From: a virus
Direction: 5' to 3' (one strand)
DNA length: 53,351 bases
Virus genome (UHGV): UHGV-0304279
Made by a program: the position numbers and the translations under genes. Shown here in pieces: positions 18,627-36,169 of this stretch. Each line of letters begins with the position of its first letter. Positions within the stretch are counted from its first letter, which is position 1. A model generated the notes under the pieces. The model did no database searches. It was not told the origin of the DNA and was given only the letters and a program-made list of their open reading frames with translations.

Positions 18627-18669
18627 GTATACAAAATGGATTGACTCGGTGTATCACGGGGCGTATATT
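18627..18669 (+). promoter_or_regulatory. candidate sigma70 promoter of the rightward operon with upstream motif copy
   Basis: -35 TTGACT (18641-18646), 17 bp spacer, -10 TATATT (18664-18669); motif GTATACAAAATGG immediately upstream. Confidence 0.5.
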
Positions 18670-26131: not shown

Positions 26132-26208
26132 TTCAAACAAACAAAATGCTCTTTAAAAATCCGGTAACGCTGAAATGCGTAGAAATCACCTGAAAAGGAG
26201 AGAGCATT

Positions 26209-27421: not shown

Positions 27422-27587
27422 AGATCTGCAAATAGATATTCAGCGCGCCGAGCGTGATTTAGAGACAGTCAGACAAATCCAGGCTTTTCACATGCGAGAA
27501 TTACTTGCGCTGAAAGAGCTTGAAAGAAAACTGGTGCAATCAATTTCTGATCGTAAACGACTGGCGGCGCGTTACTGGAGCAAATAA
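27405..27587 (+). CDS. hypothetical coiled-coil protein
   Basis: ATG 27405 with RBS GGGGTGA. Confidence 0.4.
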   Translation: MKNEIKDLQIDIQRAERDLETVRQIQAFHMRELLALKELERKLVQSISDRKRLAARYWSK

Positions 27588-28309
27588 TGAATTTAGAATC
27601 AATTCTAAAATTCCACTTTCCCAAATCACCGCGATTATCAGACGAAAGCCGGGGAACATCACCTGACGCACTTAATACTACGGATGCGCTTACCGCCGCT
27701 GGTATGGCGCAATCGCGCGTAGCGCTTGGTTACAGCGCTTTTTTGGGGAAGATGGAGCTATCGCAAGCAGAAAAACACAGGGCCGTAGTTTTGCTTACAG
27801 AGCGTTTAAGAGCTATGGCAAAAGATTACGAATACGTCATGGAACTGGAGGAGAGCCAGCGCAATGATTTTATTATTCTTGTTGCCGTTTTCGCGTTTCG
27901 GGATTATTGCCAAAGCGCCGCGACGGAAAAAACTTGTATGGAGTGCGGCGGATATAAATTTACGTTTGACGAATACGGAGAAAAACACCTTTGCAAAAAA
28001 TGCAAGGGGCACGGGAAAGTTCGCAATCATTGTAAACAATGCAAGGGGCGCGGCGAGATACCGGATAAAACAGCCAGCAATGCGGCAGAAATGCCAGTCT
28101 TCAAAACGTGCCGGCACTGTGGCGGGCGCGGGTACTCGCGTTTCCCGGTAGATCTCGTCCGGCAGGCTGTTAACCAGCTTGTTTTCCCGGTAAGCCGATC
28201 AACATGGTGGAAGAAATACAGGGTTTTCTATGAGGACGCCATAGCGGAGCTATTCAAAGAAGAAGCCCGCGCAGAAAGCGAAATCAAGCGAGTGACACGG
28301 GGTGAATAA
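27587..28309 (+). CDS. putative antitermination protein Q-like / DnaJ-type zinc-finger protein
   Basis: Four CxxCxGxG repeats (CMECGGYK, CKKCKGHG, CKQCKGRG, CRHCGGRG); follows the nin/rusA genes where lambdoid Q lies. Confidence 0.45.
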   Translation: MNLESILKFHFPKSPRLSDESRGTSPDALNTTDALTAAGMAQSRVALGYSAFLGKMELSQAEKHRAVVLLTERLRAMAKDYEYVMELEESQRNDFIILVAVFAFRDYCQSAATEKTCMECGGYKFTFDEYGEKHLCKKCKGHGKVRNHCKQCKGRGEIPDKTASNAAEMPVFKTCRHCGGRGYSRFPVDLVRQAVNQLVFPVSRSTWWKKYRVFYEDAIAELFKEEARAESEIKRVTRGE

Positions 28310-28509
28310 TGGATAAGCTGGAAATAAACGATCAGTTCGCTGTTATCTTATTTGAAGACAAAACAGGCGGCGCATGGTGTAAGAAAGTTACTGGTGCGGA
28401 AGCGCGTTTAATATTAGGTATGGCAAGCGCGTTAAATGAAGGCGAATTGCCTGCCATTCCTGTTAAGCCAGTGCATATCTATAAGCGGGGCGATGATGAA
28501 AATAATTAA
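28309..28509 (+). CDS. hypothetical protein
   Basis: Coupled ORF. Confidence 0.4.
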   Translation: MDKLEINDQFAVILFEDKTGGAWCKKVTGAEARLILGMASALNEGELPAIPVKPVHIYKRGDDENN

Positions 28510-28843
28510 TATCGGGTGGTTATATTGCGAAAACTGCTACGAAGACGGCATGGTCGTTAAGACTGAAAAAGGTTGTGGCCTCTTTCTGTATCAAGGCGAT
28601 AAGTTTGTTTGTCCGCGATGCGGTGGTAGTGGTGAGATAGAAATTATTGAAGATAACGCCGCCGCGCCAGAACCAGAGCGCATTGTCCTTGACGAAAAAA
28701 TAAAAATTCATCCTGATTTATTACAGCAAATTATCGATCACGTATCGGCAGCAGCAATCTACAGCAATAACAATTATCAGCGTGAAATTAACGTCAAACG
28801 TGCGATTGAGCAGTATTTCGAGGGTGATGATAATGAAGCCTAA
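28493..28843 (+). CDS. hypothetical protein with zinc-ribbon-like CxxC pairs
   Basis: CENC...CPRC. Confidence 0.4.
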   Translation: MMKIINIGWLYCENCYEDGMVVKTEKGCGLFLYQGDKFVCPRCGGSGEIEIIEDNAAAPEPERIVLDEKIKIHPDLLQQIIDHVSAAAIYSNNNYQREINVKRAIEQYFEGDDNEA

Positions 28844-29105
28844 ATTAAAAGAACATATTTACCGCCAGTTGGTTAACGAGCTTGCGGATATAGCACGATA
28901 TTACGCCGGGACACAACAGCTACGCGGGCGGCTATCTTCGGTTGTTAACCGCTATATTGATGCCGGATGCCATCGCAAAGGTGAAATTACGATGGATGAA
29001 GCCATCAAGCGCCGGACGGCTGAATGGTCAGTTAGTAACACCGGATTGACCGGATACATTGAAGGCTATAACGACTGTTTACAGGATCATAGCGATGGCA
29101 AGTAA
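28833..29105 (+). CDS. hypothetical protein
   Basis: RBS GAGGGTG. Confidence 0.4.
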   Translation: MKPKLKEHIYRQLVNELADIARYYAGTQQLRGRLSSVVNRYIDAGCHRKGEITMDEAIKRRTAEWSVSNTGLTGYIEGYNDCLQDHSDGK

Positions 29106-29403
29106 AGATCTACATTTAAACCTGAAAGGAGAATACTTTTACGCTATCCGGGCGGGAAAGAAGGTGGAGGAATACCGACTTTATAATGACTACTGGCGTA
29201 AACGCCTGGAAGGGCGGGAATATGAACGCCTGATCATTAAGCTGGGCTATCCAGCCAGCCACGAAACACACCGGATCATAAACCTGCCTTATTTCGGGTA
29301 TGAAGTGAAAACTATCACACATCCATTGTTCGGCCCTGATCCTGTAAAGGTATTCGCAATTAAGTGTGATGTGAATTGGATGTTAAGGTGGGGTGAGCAA
29401 TGA
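29095..29403 (+). CDS. hypothetical protein (possible ASCH/PUA-like)
   Basis: ORF; weak resemblance only. Confidence 0.35.
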   Translation: MASKDLHLNLKGEYFYAIRAGKKVEEYRLYNDYWRKRLEGREYERLIIKLGYPASHETHRIINLPYFGYEVKTITHPLFGPDPVKVFAIKCDVNWMLRWGEQ

Positions 29404-29615
29404 AAAAAGCTGGCCTGTCAATTAACCGCGTATTGTGCGGCGACGAAAACGAGATCCGCATAGAAATTAAATTTAGCACAGGTAAAGAGATAATCCTTTA
29501 CACGACACCTGAAAACCTGACGCTGGCACTTACTGGTAAATCTGAAACGCCGTGCGACGTCAGGTTACGCAATATTGAAATCAAGGAATTAAGGAAGGGT
29601 AAAAATGAAAAGTAA
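29400..29615 (+). CDS. hypothetical protein
   Basis: RBS GGTGAG. Confidence 0.4.
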   Translation: MKKAGLSINRVLCGDENEIRIEIKFSTGKEIILYTTPENLTLALTGKSETPCDVRLRNIEIKELRKGKNEK

Positions 29616-29823
29616 CCGTAAACGCCTGGTAAGGGCGTACGATAAAGCATTAAAGGCTTTTGACGACCTGCGACACAATAAGCGACAGCGCCGTAAATGG
29701 GCGCGAATGCTTGTTCATGAATGGCATTATCCTGATGCTGCCTTGATAGAAGGCGCACCGCCATTTACACAGGAACAAGCCGACGAAGTAGCTAACGATA
29801 ACGTTTATTACATGATGTGGTGA
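29605..29823 (+). CDS. hypothetical protein
   Basis: RBS AAGGAAGGG. Confidence 0.4.
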   Translation: MKSNRKRLVRAYDKALKAFDDLRHNKRQRRKWARMLVHEWHYPDAALIEGAPPFTQEQADEVANDNVYYMMW

Positions 29824-29827
29824 CAAT

Positions 29828-30193
29828 ATGCAAATTATCATTGATTACCTTTGCCATATATTCAATACGATTTTCGGCTTTTATCAACAACCATTCCTTA
29901 AAGAGTGGGATGATATGCTAAACGACATCCTCGACAGAGGATTAATAATGGAGGTTGACGATCTTACAATCAAATTTAATTACGAAGGTGAAATTTATCT
30001 AATTTGGGTAGGTAATAGATGGTATTCATACGCGAATCTTTATTCGCTAAATGGAAAACTTATCCCTAGCAGACAAGAATTCCGACCGCGCTTCCGCACA
30101 ATGCGCCGACTACATGACCTGCATATGAATCTATTTGAAGACCAGGAAGCACGGGAACTATTCAAGATCTACGGAGATAAATCATGGAGCTAA
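29828..30193 (+). CDS. hypothetical protein
   Basis: ORF in operon context. Confidence 0.4.
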   Translation: MQIIIDYLCHIFNTIFGFYQQPFLKEWDDMLNDILDRGLIMEVDDLTIKFNYEGEIYLIWVGNRWYSYANLYSLNGKLIPSRQEFRPRFRTMRRLHDLHMNLFEDQEARELFKIYGDKSWS

Positions 30194-30414
30194 AGATCTG
30201 GCAGGCTATCGACGTAGTTGATAATGAATTAACAATGTTTGCCACTGATGGAAAGCGCGTGGTGATCGCTACATGGACGCATAACCATGATGATATTGTT
30301 TTTCGTCGTGAAGCTGCGGAGTGGCTTTTCTCTGATGAAGGCTACACGATGAACATCGCCCAGCTTGCCAGAATGAAGGATGAAAAGCTGGTAGATAGTT
30401 ACACGACTGCATAG
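30184..30414 (+). CDS. hypothetical protein
   Basis: RBS GGAG. Confidence 0.4.
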   Translation: MELKIWQAIDVVDNELTMFATDGKRVVIATWTHNHDDIVFRREAAEWLFSDEGYTMNIAQLARMKDEKLVDSYTTA

Positions 30415-30424
30415 CGGGGTAAAT

Positions 30425-30655
30425 ATGCGTATCTATGAACACAAGCGGGATAAAACCCGCTTTTTTGTTCGTGCTGGCGTAGCGTACCAGTATCACGAAT
30501 GCGGATATATTGAGGCGCTTGCTTACGACCTGGATTTCGAACAAGAAAAGGAATGGTTTGACTTTAAGATTTACCGTAAGCGCAAACCGACGCGCGACGA
30601 GCGCCACGCTATACGTGACTTTCTAATCAGCATTGACCGCTGGGAGGCAGAATAA
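30425..30655 (+). CDS. hypothetical protein
   Basis: ORF in operon context. Confidence 0.4.
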   Translation: MRIYEHKRDKTRFFVRAGVAYQYHECGYIEALAYDLDFEQEKEWFDFKIYRKRKPTRDERHAIRDFLISIDRWEAE

Positions 30656-30948
30656 TGAAAGCGAAGAAAAAGGCAGATCAGAAAGCGTTAGTTATCGCCA
30701 CAACGGACGTATCGTTATTCACGAAGGGCGAAGAAATAGATCTTAAATTGCTTTTCGGTATGTTTGAGCCACACGAAAAGCCGTGGTTTGTTCATGAAGA
30801 CAAACAAGGCAATATGCGCGTTGTAGTGCCGGACAAAAACAGCGACATATTTTTTGCTATTCCAGACCCGTTACATGACGGGGAAATGCTGGCGGTATTG
30901 TTGATTGCTGACGCTGTTACTTACAAGGGAAAGAAATATGAAAGTTAA
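30655..30948 (+). CDS. hypothetical protein
   Basis: RBS GGGAGG. Confidence 0.4.
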   Translation: MKAKKKADQKALVIATTDVSLFTKGEEIDLKLLFGMFEPHEKPWFVHEDKQGNMRVVVPDKNSDIFFAIPDPLHDGEMLAVLLIADAVTYKGKKYES

Positions 30949-31165
30949 ATTCTTGCACGATCACGGCTACCCGTCATTAAAACGCGTAGTAGGGGAAGTG
31001 GTAGACGTTGTTCACTCTGATGATGTGACCTGCGTCATTATGGGTAAAGACCTCATTACTCACGGTGCTGACGATCACTACATTAACCCTGCCTGGTCGT
31101 ATACGTTTAGCCTGGGCGATTTTGTAGGGGATAAGGGGCGCGGACTGCAAGTAGTCGAGGGTTAA
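30938..31165 (+). CDS. hypothetical protein
   Basis: RBS AAGGGAAAG. Confidence 0.4.
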   Translation: MKVKFLHDHGYPSLKRVVGEVVDVVHSDDVTCVIMGKDLITHGADDHYINPAWSYTFSLGDFVGDKGRGLQVVEG

Positions 31166-31169
31166 TATC

Positions 31170-31385
31170 ATGGACGTTTACGAGGATTTATACCTCCAGA
31201 CAAATAGCCGCACTTTTTATTTTCTGAAAAACGGCGTCGTATATCGCAGCGACGACGGGGTGATAATGAAGGAGTGGCTATTTAAGCGTAAAGACCTGCT
31301 TGATGATCTGGTTTTCGCCGGGATATTCCGTAAACATCCGGCTAACCTGGAAGAAGAAATGCTGATCGACGAGGTATTGAAATGA
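31170..31385 (+). CDS. hypothetical protein
   Basis: RBS GAGGG. Confidence 0.4.
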   Translation: MDVYEDLYLQTNSRTFYFLKNGVVYRSDDGVIMKEWLFKRKDLLDDLVFAGIFRKHPANLEEEMLIDEVLK

Positions 31386-31633
31386 AAATGAAAGTTAATT
31401 ATTTCAGGGCGAAAGATAAGGTGACAGGAAAGCGTGTGGCTATCCTGGTTAACGATGCGCAATATATGTTTGTCCTCCAGCCGTGGTGCATGGCTGACTA
31501 TAACGATGATTATCGCCGTCACGCTGCGCGGCGGGCGGTTGGGATGAAAGGTTGGCAACCGCGCGACATGCTTAATTATTGCGACTGGAATCTGATAGCA
31601 AAATACACGGTCGATTATAAAGGGGTTTTCTGA
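31382..31633 (+). CDS. hypothetical protein
   Basis: RBS GAGGT. Confidence 0.4.
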   Translation: MKMKVNYFRAKDKVTGKRVAILVNDAQYMFVLQPWCMADYNDDYRRHAARRAVGMKGWQPRDMLNYCDWNLIAKYTVDYKGVF

Positions 31634-31845
31634 TGCAAGTTAAATGTTCATACTCAAGCAACGACAGCGTTTTCACGATTGGACGTATTTATGACATTCA
31701 CATCGTTTATGGCAACGAAAATCACACAATGAATAACTGCCTTGCCTTGATTGACAATCAAGATGAGATCTGGATATTCAGGCCGAGCTACAGTGGCGGT
31801 GAAATATCCGGCGTGGGTTTTGCTGCCAGCTTTGAACGTTATTAA
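31633..31845 (+). CDS. hypothetical protein
   Basis: RBS AAAGGGG. Confidence 0.4.
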   Translation: MQVKCSYSSNDSVFTIGRIYDIHIVYGNENHTMNNCLALIDNQDEIWIFRPSYSGGEISGVGFAASFERY

Positions 31846-31855
31846 AGGGGTAAGC

Positions 31856-32107
31856 ATGAAACATTTATATTTTGAGGTAGTGCAGACGCGTGACCGCGAT
31901 ATATTCGATGAGGGGAAAGTTTATTGCGGCGTTCAACTCCACGGCGCACCGGGCGGTGAGGCGATGGCGATAACTGGTGATGATGATAAGGTTTATTTTG
32001 CTTATGTCACACGCTTTCCACACACTGACGAGGTTTATTATCGCATCGTGTATGACTTCCAGGGCGTAGCTGTATTTTGTGAACGTGAAGGCAGTAAACC
32101 GGAATAG
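31856..32107 (+). CDS. hypothetical protein
   Basis: RBS AAAGGGG. Confidence 0.4.
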   Translation: MKHLYFEVVQTRDRDIFDEGKVYCGVQLHGAPGGEAMAITGDDDKVYFAYVTRFPHTDEVYYRIVYDFQGVAVFCEREGSKPE

Positions 32108-32116
32108 GTGATGGTT

Positions 32117-32356
32117 ATGAGTCGGAAACATAGATACCAGTGCACATACTCACGATGCAGCGCGTTTTTTAAGAATGGCAAGATCTACGAGGTTGGCGCG
32201 GCACTGGTTGACGCAAAGGATCAGGAATATATTCACGCCATTACTGACGACCAGGGCCAGCTATGGCGATTTTATAAGATGGGGTGTGGCACGGCGCTTG
32301 TTTATGCGCGTGCTGGTGGTGGTGCTTTTGCTGCATTTTCGTATGTGGGGGCGTAA
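32117..32356 (+). CDS. hypothetical protein
   Basis: Start uncertain (GTG 32108, ATG 32111 or ATG 32117). Confidence 0.35.
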   Translation: MSRKHRYQCTYSRCSAFFKNGKIYEVGAALVDAKDQEYIHAITDDQGQLWRFYKMGCGTALVYARAGGGAFAAFSYVGA

Positions 32357-32358
32357 AA

Positions 32359-32577
32359 ATGATTTTAACGTGTAACGAGTCGGAATTAGGTTGTTTTGAG
32401 GAAGGCGCACAGTATACGGCTGAAAAACCGATGGGATTGTCGCCTAAGTTTCCGTTTATCGTCGTGACTGACACTTACGGTCACTTATGGTATGCAGAGC
32501 CGCTATGCGGTATTGGTCGTTATGTTATCCGTAGTTCTGACGGGGCGAAGAAGGTAACTCTTACGGAAGAAACATAA
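32359..32577 (+). CDS. hypothetical protein
   Basis: RBS GGGGG. Confidence 0.4.
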   Translation: MILTCNESELGCFEEGAQYTAEKPMGLSPKFPFIVVTDTYGHLWYAEPLCGIGRYVIRSSDGAKKVTLTEET

Positions 32578-32596
32578 ATGTGATCTACTTCTCAAA

Positions 32597-32640
32597 GTAT
32601 ACAAAATGGCATTGTTCCTGCAGTGCCGTTTTGTTATATA
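32597..32640 (+). promoter_or_regulatory. intergenic motif pair with promoter-like hexamers
   Basis: GTATACAAAATGGC (32597-32610), -35-like TTGTTC, CCGTTTTGTTATATA (32626-32640). Confidence 0.4.
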
Positions 32641-32674
32641 TAAGTCGAGGAAAGACGGAAGGGGAGACAAGAAA

Positions 32675-32950
32675 ATGAAACGCTGGATTAAAAAAGAAGT
32701 TGAATCTCGCTTAAACGCATTTTGGGATATGGTGGAAAAAGAAGACCCCGCGCACGCAGCAAGCCCTTATCTGAACAACATTGAATATCACTACATTGCA
32801 GCAAACAACGCGGAGTTCGAGGAAGAAGGTGGAGCAGACAAGTTCGCCCAAAGCAACGCATTCGATAACGCAAACGAAATGATGATGGCAGTAATCGCAC
32901 AGGCAGAGGAAGACTGGAGCGAAAAAACATTGGAATGGGCGCGCAAATAA
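32675..32950 (+). CDS. hypothetical protein
   Basis: RBS AAGGGGAG; an in-frame upstream ATG at 32606 lies in the motif region. Confidence 0.4.
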   Translation: MKRWIKKEVESRLNAFWDMVEKEDPAHAASPYLNNIEYHYIAANNAEFEEEGGADKFAQSNAFDNANEMMMAVIAQAEEDWSEKTLEWARK

Positions 32951-32961
32951 GAGGTGGATTT

Positions 32962-33102
32962 ATGAACGCTAACGCCAAATATCCTGCATGGGTTTTCGAA
33001 CTGTATGCACGCTACTTCGAATTACTGGCACCAGGTGAAGAAGCATTGAGCATTGACGAATACGCGGAGTGTTTAGGATTTAAAGGAGACGAAGAAGAAT
33101 AA
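32962..33102 (+). CDS. hypothetical small protein (46 aa)
   Basis: RBS GAGGTGG; below the ORF track cutoff. Confidence 0.35.
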   Translation: MNANAKYPAWVFELYARYFELLAPGEEALSIDEYAECLGFKGDEEE

Positions 33103-33145
33103 AACATGGGGCCGGATGGCCCCATTAAATCAGAAGGGTTTAATT

Positions 33146-33430
33146 ATGAAAAGTGCTAAATTTATTGCTTGCTGTTTTGTTGAAGTACCTAACGATGATG
33201 TTTTCTGTAACTACGAATTTAAAGACAGTGCCGGAACTGTTCATACCATAGTAGGCAAGCGTGGTGACTGGTTATATATCACTGATAGAGACAGAATATT
33301 GACGGTTAACCAACTTATTTACATTAAACGTGGTTACGATGATTATGATCTTTTAAACAAAATAGCAAATGATGTTTTTAATAGCAGTTGCGTAGAAACG
33401 GCAAGATCTCTACCTGGTGCGGAGTTTTAA
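33146..33430 (+). CDS. hypothetical protein
   Basis: RBS GAAGGG. Confidence 0.4.
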   Translation: MKSAKFIACCFVEVPNDDVFCNYEFKDSAGTVHTIVGKRGDWLYITDRDRILTVNQLIYIKRGYDDYDLLNKIANDVFNSSCVETARSLPGAEF

Positions 33431-33432
33431 TT

Positions 33433-33687
33433 ATGGAAATAATCAAAATATGGCGCGGCAATAGTAAGGCTGATGGTGAGTTTTGCCGCGTCGTTCAATT
33501 CGTCAATTATGGTAGGTTTTATGAGCTACCTTATGACAAAAGGAAGGATGATTTTTATTTAAGCGAATCAATCCCGGTGCACAGAAAAATGAAGGCGCTT
33601 AGAGGATTATTGCGAAGTGGTTTTTATTCTTGCCCTAACCCATTAAACAATCCTGAACTGGTAGCTGTTTTTTACGAAGGAAAATAA
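33433..33687 (+). CDS. hypothetical protein
   Basis: RBS GGAG. Confidence 0.4.
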   Translation: MEIIKIWRGNSKADGEFCRVVQFVNYGRFYELPYDKRKDDFYLSESIPVHRKMKALRGLLRSGFYSCPNPLNNPELVAVFYEGK

Positions 33688-33690
33688 ACA

Positions 33691-34014
33691 ATGTCTAAAT
33701 TTATCAGCGTTAAAGTTTTCCGTGGCACTATTCCAGAAGGTGAGAAATACGGCCAATTCGGTGGAATGCCAGGTGCATGTTTCCGTGTAGCCACGGAAGA
33801 CGACGACCATGTTAAATGCTTCCATGTATCGGAGCCGCCTTTTAATCCAGAGCATCTTGAAAACCCGAATAAAATTAAAATGTTCGTTTTCGCTTTACTG
33901 ATGCTTAATCCTTTCCCTGATGTTGAAATGGAATTAGTTGGCGCGGAAGTGGTCGCGGAATACAAAATAACCCCGGCAGAAAACGGAGATTCTAAAATTG
34001 AGCGCATCAAATAA
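33691..34014 (+). CDS. hypothetical protein
   Basis: ORF in operon context. Confidence 0.4.
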   Translation: MSKFISVKVFRGTIPEGEKYGQFGGMPGACFRVATEDDDHVKCFHVSEPPFNPEHLENPNKIKMFVFALLMLNPFPDVEMELVGAEVVAEYKITPAENGDSKIERIK

Positions 34015-34252
34015 ACCTTACAAGATCCGGTGCAAAGGTGAATACCCTGGATTCACTACTGGACTCGAATACCTGGGCCATATGGGGTATGGCCCGTTCG
34101 GCGAGTTAGGAATGAATACGATTGACGACGACGGCGACAACAGGACGCTTGATCTTGATAGCGATGATTTCGAATACATCCCGCCAGTCACTTACCGCGC
34201 CGTCGATGAATTCCTGGCAGAACAAGAAGACGAGGAAGATGAAGATGATTGA
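33998..34252 (+). CDS. hypothetical acidic protein
   Basis: Probable TTG start with RBS GGAG; acidic C-terminus. Confidence 0.3.
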   Translation: MSASNKPYKIRCKGEYPGFTTGLEYLGHMGYGPFGELGMNTIDDDGDNRTLDLDSDDFEYIPPVTYRAVDEFLAEQEDEEDEDD

Positions 34253-34448
34253 ATTACTTATCCTTGCGGTAGTTCTCCTTTATCTGGCTGGCGTCATTTT
34301 AATGGGCGCTTTCCAACAAGCGGTAGATAGTGACGGCATTGTTTGGTTTGAGCTAGTTTTCTGGCCTTTCATTACAATATACGCTTTCGCTGATGCTATG
34401 CGTATTAACATCATGCGAGCTATCAAGGAGCACAAAAATGGGAAATAG
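34239..34448 (+). CDS. small membrane protein
   Basis: Two hydrophobic helices; RBS GAGGAAG. Confidence 0.4.
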   Translation: MKMIELLILAVVLLYLAGVILMGAFQQAVDSDGIVWFELVFWPFITIYAFADAMRINIMRAIKEHKNGK

Positions 34449-34602
34449 CGACCATGAATATGACGGCGTTTATCAGTCACTGGCTACACGCGCTTATTAC
34501 CGCCTTGAGGGTGAAAACGTTTTGATGCGCCTGGGTAGTCTTGATAAATGGCATGAGCCGTTTTTTACCCATGACAGCAAAAGAGATTATTACGATGGTT
34601 AA
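34438..34602 (+). CDS. hypothetical protein
   Basis: RBS AAGGAG. Confidence 0.4.
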   Translation: MGNSDHEYDGVYQSLATRAYYRLEGENVLMRLGSLDKWHEPFFTHDSKRDYYDG

Positions 34603-34699
34603 CCACGGATACTGGCGCAAGGTTGGTGATTTGTAACCATAATCGCACATAAAAAACAAATAGATTAAAATATTTCCTAACAATGCGAAATTGTAATTA

Positions 34700-34721
34700 C
34701 CCGGCCACGTGCCGGGTTTTT
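34700..34721 (+). terminator. terminator-like hairpin immediately upstream of the lysis cassette (candidate tR'-like element)
   Basis: CCCGGC-cacgt-GCCGGG followed by TTTTT. Confidence 0.55.
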
Positions 34722-34740
34722 GCTTGTTGGAGGTAAATCT

Positions 34741-34941
34741 ATGTTCGACAAAATACGGGAGGCGTGCGCGTATGCAGTAGGGGCCGTAACGGCCTTTTTC
34801 GGTGCGATAACCATCAATGATGTTGCTGTCTTTGTGGGTATCTTATCAACCGCAGGTACATTTGCCGTTAACTATTACTTCAAATCACAGGAGAACAAGC
34901 GAGCGCAAGAGGAACACGACGCGCGAATGGGGAATAAGTAA
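34741..34941 (+). CDS. holin (small, two TM helices; likely pinholin partner of the SAR endolysin)
   Basis: 66 aa with two hydrophobic helices and a charged C-terminus; RBS GGAGGT; directly upstream of the endolysin. Confidence 0.65.
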   Translation: MFDKIREACAYAVGAVTAFFGAITINDVAVFVGILSTAGTFAVNYYFKSQENKRAQEEHDARMGNK

Positions 34942-35433
34942 ATGATTAGCCAATCGCTGAAGAACAAGATTATTGCTGCGGCGGCTGGTGGGGCGATCGC
35001 TATTGCGGCTGTGATGGTTAAACCATTAGAAGGCGTGGAGTACGATCCGTATCGTGATGTTATCGGTGTATGGACTGTATGTTATGGTCATACCGGAAAA
35101 GACATCATGCTTGGTAAGACTTACACGCAATCAGAATGCGATGCTTTGTTAAATAAAGATCTCCACAAAACCGCAAAAGCGATCGACCCCTATATTAAAG
35201 TCGAAATATCAGATTTTACCCGCGCGGCGCTTTATTCATTCGCCTATAACGTAGGCGCTACCAACTTTAAAACATCAACATTATTGAAGCTACTCAATGA
35301 CGGCAAGAAATCGGAAGCGTGCGCACAGCTTAAACGCTGGATCTATGCTGGTGGTAAGCAGTGGCAAGGGTTAATTAACCGTCGTGATATTGAATATGCC
35401 GTTTGCGAATGGGGTGAAACATGGACAAGGTAA
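34942..35433 (+). CDS. SAR endolysin (T4-lysozyme-like, GH24) with N-terminal signal-anchor-release domain
   Basis: Catalytic-region motifs (EG..YDPY.D..G.WT.CYGHTG) preceded by a Gly/Ala-rich weakly hydrophobic N-terminal helix ([18 protein letters not shown]). Confidence 0.8.
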
Positions 35434-36005
35434 AGGCGTTAGTTATTGCCGTTGTTGTTTGCATTATTGCCGGACTAACTGCCGTTACATGTTATTACCA
35501 GGGTGAGGCGGCAAGGTTACAGGAAGAAGTCACGGTGACGCAAGGCGCACTAAAAACAGCAAGTAACACCATTCAGCAGATGAAGGAGCGAAACGCCGAA
35601 CTGTCAAAACTTGATAAGAGGTATCACGATGAGATTAAAGCTATCAGATCTGACATTGCCGATCTGCGCACTGGCATTGATAGCGGCGCTATCAGGTTGC
35701 ACGTCAACGCCGAGCCAGTGCGATTGCTCGACAATACCGGAGCCGCCAGCCGCATTGATGGAGCCACCTGTAGACTCACTCCCGACGCTGAATCGGCTTA
35801 TCTATCCCTCAGAGAACAACTAAAAGAGAAAGACGCGAAGATCACCGGATTGCAGGACTACATCAAAACGCAGTGCTTACGCAAAGAACAACAGCGCGTG
35901 GACGTGTCGCCGTTTCCGCCAGCCAGCCATAACCGGGCCAATCCTTCCCGCGAGCGACGGCGGAATAGTCAAAAACACGTAATGCCGGAACATCCATCCC
36001 ATTAA
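35421..36005 (+). CDS. i-spanin Rz (with unusually long C-terminal extension)
   Basis: N-terminal TM helix followed by coiled coil; contains the embedded Rz1 frame. Confidence 0.65.
35629..35823 (+). CDS. o-spanin Rz1 (lipoprotein, embedded in Rz in the +1 frame)
   Basis: Lipobox LSGC within a signal peptide, Pro-rich mature part; RBS AAGAGG. Confidence 0.65.
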   Translation: MRLKLSDLTLPICALALIAALSGCTSTPSQCDCSTIPEPPAALMEPPVDSLPTLNRLIYPSENN

Positions 36006-36169
36006 CAGGTCCGGCGCTACCTGGGCAGAAGAAAGCGCCATTCTCAAGTTTATAAAATTCTGGAAACGGTACTGATGAAGCGCCGTTCTCAGTGTTTTAT
36101 AGCTGTTTTCACTCCCTGCGGTGTCGAGTTTTGCGGGGGTTATATTTTTCAGGATAGAGGAATATTCTG

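Follow-up and report, generated by a model that had tools for sequence, protein, structure and literature searches.

The DNA analyzed here, the whole 53,351-nucleotide (nt) stretch of the virus genome UHGV-0304279 (hereafter the window, to which all coordinates refer), carries at positions 27587-28309 on the plus strand a gene for Q, a late-gene antiterminator of 240 amino acids (aa) assigned to the Qλ family through PF03589 and phrog_127. A GGAG lies 6 nt 5' of its ATG, and Q shares a TAATG overlap with each neighbor, between its start and the stop of a small upstream open reading frame (ORF) and between its stop and the start of the next ORF. The genes 5' of Q encode a DNA methyltransferase (phrog_757), NinG (PF05766), RusA (PF05866; 27002-27421) and a product of 60-71 aa (phrog_18514; 27372/27405-27587). 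A preliminary description of this DNA had the ORF at 27587-28309 following rusA; the ORF is real and the RusA gene does lie upstream of it, but the phrog_18514 ORF intervenes, so the two are not directly adjoining. On the 3' side, the ORF list bears out the roughly 25 small genes said to separate Q from the lysis genes, which are tightly packed on the same strand (28309-34602), and the stated distance of about 6 kb agrees with the 6,431 nt measured between the stop of Q and the ATG of the holin gene. A non-coding gap of 138 nt then extends from the end of the last small ORF, at 34602, to that ATG at 34741. The lysis cassette (34741-36005, plus strand) comprises genes for a holin (34741-34941), a lysozyme (34942-35433) and Rz (35421-36005) with an embedded Rz1, assigned through PF16080 for the holin, the ORFs and the annotation of relatives, and these are the first genes 3' of the late-promoter cassette proposed here.

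In a Pfam profile search, the Q protein matched PF03589 (Antiterm), which corresponds to the Qλ family (PMC9388147), with 99.8 bits against a gathering cutoff of 26.7 bits, and phrog_127 ("anti-termination protein Q-like") covers residues 1-238 of the 240 with E=1.5e-77. The top sequence match in the PDB is λ Q itself (7ubm_Q, E=6.8e-37), in an alignment of two blocks that pairs query residues 1-123 with Qλ 1-124 and query residues 148-238 with Qλ 117-207, and full-length identity to λ Q is 38%. λ Q is also the top PDB match by fold, and the predicted structure agrees with the Qλ structures (PDB 4MO1, 7UBJ-7UBN), with a four-helix body containing the helix-turn-helix and a zinc-ribbon arm. The N-terminal segment (codons 1-60; 27587-27766, plus strand) shares 34 of its 60 residues with λ Q (57%), compared with about 30% in the rest of the protein; in Qλ, residues 1-60 refold together with NusA into a torus, which touches the β flap tip and makes the RNA-exit channel narrower (PMC9388147). 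Among the λ residues whose functional roles are taken from the same work (PMC9388147), G39, L58 and T206 are retained, and V6 and L202 are both replaced by isoleucine. Neither the Q21 family (PF06530) nor the Q82 family (PF06323) was among the Pfam matches at E<=1.

The profile search against Q families that the preliminary description had proposed as a check was strongly positive, and its reservation that the protein may not be Q at all is rejected by the PF03589, phrog_127 and PDB matches. By its sequence matches and predicted fold, the ORF encodes an ordinary member of the Qλ family. The protein itself is of a known kind and is already annotated: the orthologue in phage mEp021 (mEp021_37, 723 bp) is recorded as "putative late gene regulator Q", near-identical proteins are annotated as Q in mEp021 and in E. 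coli prophages, and the protein cluster at 95% identity, with 981 member sequences, bears the NCBI name "antitermination protein".

The protein had been credited with four DnaJ-type CxxCxGxG repeats. Four Cys pairs are present, placed in a row as in the DnaJ cysteine-rich domain (PF00684); three of them fit the strict motif (C136, CKKCKGHG; C149, CKQCKGRG; C175, CRHCGGRG), but the first, C117-x2-C120, reads CMECGGYK, that is, CxxCxGxK with the final G missing. All eight Cys are invariant across 33 homologues, so the pairs are not a product of chance. Unlike λ Q, which has one pair of Cys knuckles, the window Q has two pairs, through a 32-residue insert at the arm base (codons 117-148; 27935-28030, plus strand, from alignments with λ Q) that carries the knuckles C117xxC120 and C136xxC139. 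Among homologues, this insert is 32-75 aa long with both of its knuckles invariant, and the loop between knuckles 1 and 2 ranges from 15 to about 60 residues across the 33 sequences. The λ-homologous part of the arm (codons 149-182; 28031-28132, plus strand) carries C149xxC152 and C175xxC178, which align with λ C118/C121 and C144/C147 at the same 22-residue spacing and make up a predicted zinc site.

The Qλ arm is a zinc ribbon (residues 114-152) in which residues near the zinc contact positions 11-13 of the Q-binding element, the base touches the β' zinc-binding domain, and the tip touches the repositioned sigma region 4 (PMC9388147). Knuckles 3 and 4 of the window Q would form the λ-like zinc site and knuckles 1 and 2 a second site at the arm base; most likely, the extra Cys pair binds a second zinc and enlarges the arm base, though the pairing might instead be nested and DnaJ-like, knuckle 1 with 4 and 2 with 3. 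A two-zinc arm, if present, would alter how Q contacts DNA and the β' zinc-binding domain. To our knowledge, the only solved structures in the Qλ family are those of the two-knuckle λ protein.

Arms with four motifs are frequent among Qλ-family proteins and do not call the identity of the protein as Q into question. The same four Cys pairs are found in the Q proteins of φ80 (gp17, 269 aa; JX871397), SEN22 (254 aa) and a Stx2c phage (250 aa), as well as in all 80 of the viral-contig relatives that were retrieved. Among an evenly spaced 60 of the 250 phage records with a Qλ homologue, about half of the homologues are of λ length (621 bp) and about half are longer. φ80 Q is a long form with its Cys pairs in the same order and 32% identity to the window Q; its loop between knuckles 1 and 2 has about 50 aa, compared with 15 aa here. 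The third knuckle is CxC instead of CxxC in φ80 Q and in the 254-aa Qs of the SEN22 type (CRCHGKG, CQCNGKG).

Three DNA elements are required for Qλ-type antitermination, namely a promoter whose spacer holds the Q site, a sigma-dependent pause element that resembles a -10 and spans about +1 to +6, and a terminator; in the textbook arrangement this "Q-dependent regulatory cassette" lies directly 3' of Q (PMC9388147). In the window, a cognate cassette can be recognized as a sequence pattern with a candidate Q site at 34643-34721, within the gap before the holin gene, which reads, in order, TCGCAC, a 17-nt spacer, TAAAAT, ATTTCCT, AACAAT, 14 nt, a hairpin with a T-run, GGAGG and the holin ATG. 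All of its elements lie on the plus strand. TAAAAT (34666-34671) is the putative -10 hexamer of the proposed late promoter, equivalent to PR', and TCGCAC (34643-34648), a poor match, takes the presumed -35 position 17 nt 5' of it. The conserved part of the spacer, AAACAAATAGAT (34654-34665), is a candidate Q-binding element. AACAAT (34679-34684), at about +1 to +6, would be the pause element, sigma-dependent and similar to a -10; its counterparts, AACGAT in λ, AACGCT in φ80 and AACGAT, AACAGT or AATGAT in others, each lie 6-7 nt past the -10. Transcription is predicted to start at about 34679. At approximately +21 to +43 (34699-34721) stands an intrinsic terminator that would be equivalent to tR', its hairpin (34699-34717) formed by a GC-rich stem of 7 bp, 6 of them GC, and a 5-nt loop (ΔG -20.5, z -2.56) and followed by a T5 run to 34721. 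The terminator-like hairpin that had been noticed just before the holin is thereby confirmed, and a terminator is annotated before the holin in mEp021 (TERM_5) and mEp010 (T9) as well. A terminator t5 described as "experimentally demonstrated" (PMC11893012) may correspond to TERM_5.

A search of the window for a -10/pause-element motif followed by a perfect-stem terminator within 70 nt gave a single hit, as against none in 100 shuffles. No λ-like -10/pause-element motif was found on the plus strand between 22385 and 34666, the conserved spacer with its -10 has no second copy elsewhere in the window, and Rfam returned nothing in the window. Two other candidates were set aside. TTACGATGGTTAACC at 34592-34606 resembles the λ pause region AACGATGGGTTAA, but it lies partly in the last small ORF, has no properly spaced -10, and falls in an 11-nt insertion that is found only in the window and is absent from three relatives. 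The promoter-like sequence at 31751-31778 (TTGACA-16-GATATT) is accompanied by neither a pause element nor a terminator, and in total such sites are about as many as chance predicts. Just past the lysis cassette, at 36053-36070, stands a second -10/N6/AAC motif, TAAAAT-TCTGGA-AACGGT; no terminator follows it, and it may be due to chance.

Sequence comparison between genomes provides the strongest support for the cassette. The DNA of the Q region is 86-88% identical to that of MagusPhagus, mEp010, mEp013, mEp044, mEp515, mEp554 and mEp021, relatives that belong to the "mEpimmI" group, temperate coliphages from human faeces that are Nus-dependent and non-lambdoid and are reportedly as frequent there as lambdoid phages (PMC11893012). 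The Q orthologues of mEp021 (mEp021_37), mEp010, mEp013, mEp044 and MagusPhagus have 86-94% protein identity and the same genome position, and their genomes share the pre-holin block and terminator with the window; the sole difference lies in the intervening small genes, 8 in mEp021 as against about 25 here. In 24 mEpimmI-type genomes, the block AAACAAAYRGAT-TAAAAT-N7-AACAAT-GCGAAANTGTAAYTA-stem-loop-stem-T5 is essentially invariant, with the spacer sequence AAACAAAYRGAT and the -10 the same in all, the stem kept and the loop variable, and the -35 position reads TTGTAG or TTGTGG in most relatives. Over the same 24 genomes, the distance from Q to the holin runs from 2,003 nt (mEp021) to 6,431 nt (the window), and the small-ORF block, which is mosaic and longest in the window, spans 2.0-6.4 kb with 8 to approximately 25 genes. 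The window loses its homology to mEp021 and mEp010 at 28313, immediately past Q, and regains it at 34653/4, position -26 of the proposed promoter. A possible association between the 240-aa and 242-aa Q variants and two sequence types upstream of the cassette was tested, and no correlation was found.

A similar layout recurs in more distant lineages. Contigs of about 52 kb whose Q is 50% identical to the window Q carry NinG, RusA, a small ORF, Q and then 11-13 packed small genes, a gap and the holin; the gap contains TATAAT-TCCCTC-AATAAT followed after 17 nt by a terminator, with AAACAATAT at the spacer position taken by AAACAAATAGAT in the window. In a third lineage, with a Q 47% identical, at least 11 packed genes follow Q. 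The order of elements (-10, 6-7 nt of discriminator, an AACNAT pause element, terminator) is that of λ, with a 7-nt discriminator in the window, and the placement of the -10 relative to the pause element matches λ (TTGACT-N17-TAAATT-TGACTC-AACGAT), the annotated pR' of φ80 (TTGCAT-N17-TAGATT-CATCTCT-AACGCT, with a terminator approximately 46 nt further on), the Stx2c phage (TTGCAT-N17-TAAGAT-TTTCCC-AACGAT) and SEN22 (TTTACA-N17-TAATAT-CATTTCT-AACAGT). Of 17 additional distinct loci that carry a long-form Q, 16 show the cassette pattern, as does an Enterobacter prophage, with the cassette 20-65 nt past the Q stop; at the seventeenth locus the elements are the same, but 5 nt separate the -10 from the pause element. 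The closest match in layout is φ80 pR', with its 7-nt discriminator and nearby terminator; unlike the cassette of the window, it lies 43 nt after the Q stop and has TTGCAT as its -35, and the annotated φ80 Q site, TCGCGGA, is absent from the window cassette. The λ PR' lies about 50 nt after Q with a good -35 (TTGACT) and a 194-nt leader, whereas the window cassette is 6.3 kb away, its -35 is poor and its predicted leader is about 43 nt long.

The cassette of the window is thus not directly 3' of its Q gene: 6,333 nt lie between the Q stop and the -35 position, and about 1.9-6.3 kb do so in the relatives, as opposed to 20-65 nt between Q and cassette at the φ80, SEN22-like, Stx2c and Enterobacter prophage loci. 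Adjacency of Q and cassette is a trait of genome layout and is not needed for the function of the protein. From this layout and the comparative conservation, we infer that the Q-dependent cassette has become separated from Q in the mEpimmI group and that the pre-holin hairpin is its terminator. The preliminary description had allowed that the protein might act at a distant site, and it is this branch that the comparison favors, with the hairpin near 34700 as the apparent terminator of a cassette of the λ/φ80 type that has moved away from Q.

Taken together, we consider it likely that Q is a working Qλ-family late antiterminator of an mEp021-group phage that acts at the remote pre-holin cassette. 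It most likely acts at a distance, on a site 6.4 kb away just before the lysis genes. Q would be transcribed from the early rightward operon, from a promoter at about 18.65 kb and with antitermination by the N-like Gp17, and the approximately 25 small genes 3' of Q would be transcribed by the same operon; that block is read as delayed-early. The protein would then diffuse in trans to a compact late transcription unit 6.3 kb downstream, where RNA polymerase would start at about 34679 from the -10 TAAAAT and pause through binding of sigma-70 to AACAAT. Q would bind the promoter spacer, with AAACAAATAGAT as the candidate site, load onto the paused polymerase and, together with NusA, form a nozzle on the RNA-exit channel with its N-terminus, and the modified polymerase would pass the +21 to +43 hairpin and later terminators into the holin, lysozyme, Rz and virion genes. 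In the absence of Q, a leader of only about 43 nt would be made. NusA aids the engagement of Q only on nascent RNA of less than about 30 nt (PMC4914094), and a local promoter with a short RNA fits this behavior.

Two stretches of the early region touch on this scheme. The best rightward sigma-70 match of the region, at 18641-18669 (TTGACT-17-TATATT), is a candidate early promoter for the Q operon. At 26147-26196, in a 160-nt gap after a cytosine-methyltransferase-like gene, a boxA-like GCTCTTTAA precedes a small hairpin whose loop is A-rich (CACCTGAAAAGG); of the three nut sites of mEp021, the third, nutR2, occupies the same place, about 1.4 kb 5' of Q (PMC11893012).

Several observations weigh against the proposed cassette and the action of Q upon it. 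The bare -10/N6-7/AAYNNT motif occurs at chance level (22 found, 23.8 expected) and is not significant, so the weight of the cassette comes from its combination with a terminator and from its conservation across genomes. The -35 is weak, with 2 of 6 consensus positions in TCGCAC and 3 of 6 in the TTGTAG of relatives, and a simple sigma-70 consensus scan found no promoter in 34603-34740; because of the poor -35, the scan missed a cassette that is recognized only by comparison with λ, φ80 and the other loci. The hairpin begins about 4-5 nt past the pause expected at +16/+17, as opposed to approximately +35 to +60 in the phages compared, and being so near the pause it leaves a tight time for loading. 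The Q-binding element is a guess made from conservation alone. Polymerase modified by the N-like Gp17 and arriving from upstream might pass the terminator without Q.

To a more far-reaching view of the locus we give only a slim chance. In that view, Q and its loading site have been pulled apart around a pocket of 2-6.4 kb, in which 8-25 fast-changing tiny genes would have early, N-dependent expression only and would be walled off by PR'-tR'. The late promoter of some members, the window included, would have no usable -35, so the two-zinc arm might also recruit or stabilize polymerase; Q would then be both activator and antiterminator, or would load on polymerase arriving from upstream.

An improbable rival explanation dispenses with a dedicated late promoter altogether, in that Q would load on polymerase from the early promoter that has already passed through the 25 small genes and paused at AACAAT through retained or re-bound sigma-70, and would carry it through the hairpin. 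The -35 is indeed poor or absent, everything from the early region to the holin is tightly packed on one strand, and phage 82 Q engages a promoter-distal sigma-dependent paused complex in vitro (PMC4914094). What this explanation makes needless is the separate, invariant -10 (TAAAAT, or TATAAT in the lineage with 50% identity) that lies 6-7 nt before the pause element, at the spacing seen in every classical PR' that was examined, and NusA antagonizes the engagement of Q on long nascent RNA (PMC4914094).

It is more doubtful still that the real late promoter lies at or just past the 3' end of Q, which would make the 25 small genes late genes and the pre-holin hairpin an internal attenuator. In the other Qλ-family phages examined, PR' does take this canonical place, 20-65 nt past Q, and the 71-aa product of an ORF within the small-ORF block (31170-31385) shares 90% identity with mEp021_41, whose annotation is "virion structural protein"; with the late promoter where it is proposed here, this ORF, lying between Q and that promoter, would be expressed from the early operon. 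However, the Q stop overlaps the next ORF start, so that there is no intergenic DNA and no room for a promoter after Q, the plus strand carries no -10/pause-element motif from 22385 up to the proposed promoter, the homology to mEp021 stops at 28313 with nothing conserved together with Q downstream of it, and the conserved cassette sits before the holin.

We regard it as equally doubtful that read-through by the N-like Gp17 from the early operon mainly drives the late and lysis genes, with Q redundant or vestigial. The three nut sites of mEp021, with nutR2 upstream of Q, and the boxA-like sequence and A-rich hairpin in the window would suit such an arrangement, but Q is intact, lineages as distant as 30-50% identity keep all its Cys and torus residues, the matching cassette is conserved as well, and the describers of the mEpimmI group list a Qλ-like protein as one of the factors that development requires (PMC11893012). 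That the protein is instead a DnaJ-like zinc-finger chaperone or another zinc protein is effectively refuted, as the likeness to DnaJ stands at the level of the motif, with a PF00684 match (28.4 bits) under the 32.7 gathering cutoff, NCBIfam DnaJ models matched weakly and far under their cutoffs, and no J domain or other DnaJ domain found in the Pfam search, as opposed to full-length λ Q homology in sequence and fold.

The neighboring genes provided further observations. The small-ORF block is a hypervariable accessory region, mosaic in the 24 related genomes, and no Pfam family was found for any of the 9 of its ORFs tested. The second gene after Q (ORF 28436-28843) contains CxxC...CPRCGGSG at 28493-28843 and has a weak PF00684 match (E=0.012), making its product a second zinc-knuckle protein beside Q. 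In the lysis cassette, the Rz-like ORF (35421-36005) encodes 194 aa, compared with about 156-160 aa in mEp021 and MagusPhagus, through a C-terminal extension of approximately 35 aa, and the Rz1 candidate embedded in it (35611-35823) has the lipobox LSGC.

The published description of the mEpimmI phages mentions the Qλ-like protein, the terms "late promoter" and "late gene" never occur in it, and a late promoter or Q site is not described (PMC11893012). It appears that neither the uncoupling of Q from its cassette nor the compact late cassette with its poor -35 has been described for these phages. With a protein that is itself ordinary, the gain of this analysis is the placement of the mEpimmI late switch, for which it yields predictions open to direct test, namely a start near 34679, the AACAAT pause element, a candidate Q site and a leader some 43 nt long. 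The layout is a directly testable variant of the textbook system and no surprise to specialists. Q and PR' need not adjoin as they do in the textbook arrangement, since a variable block of small genes lies between them in at least two related lineages.

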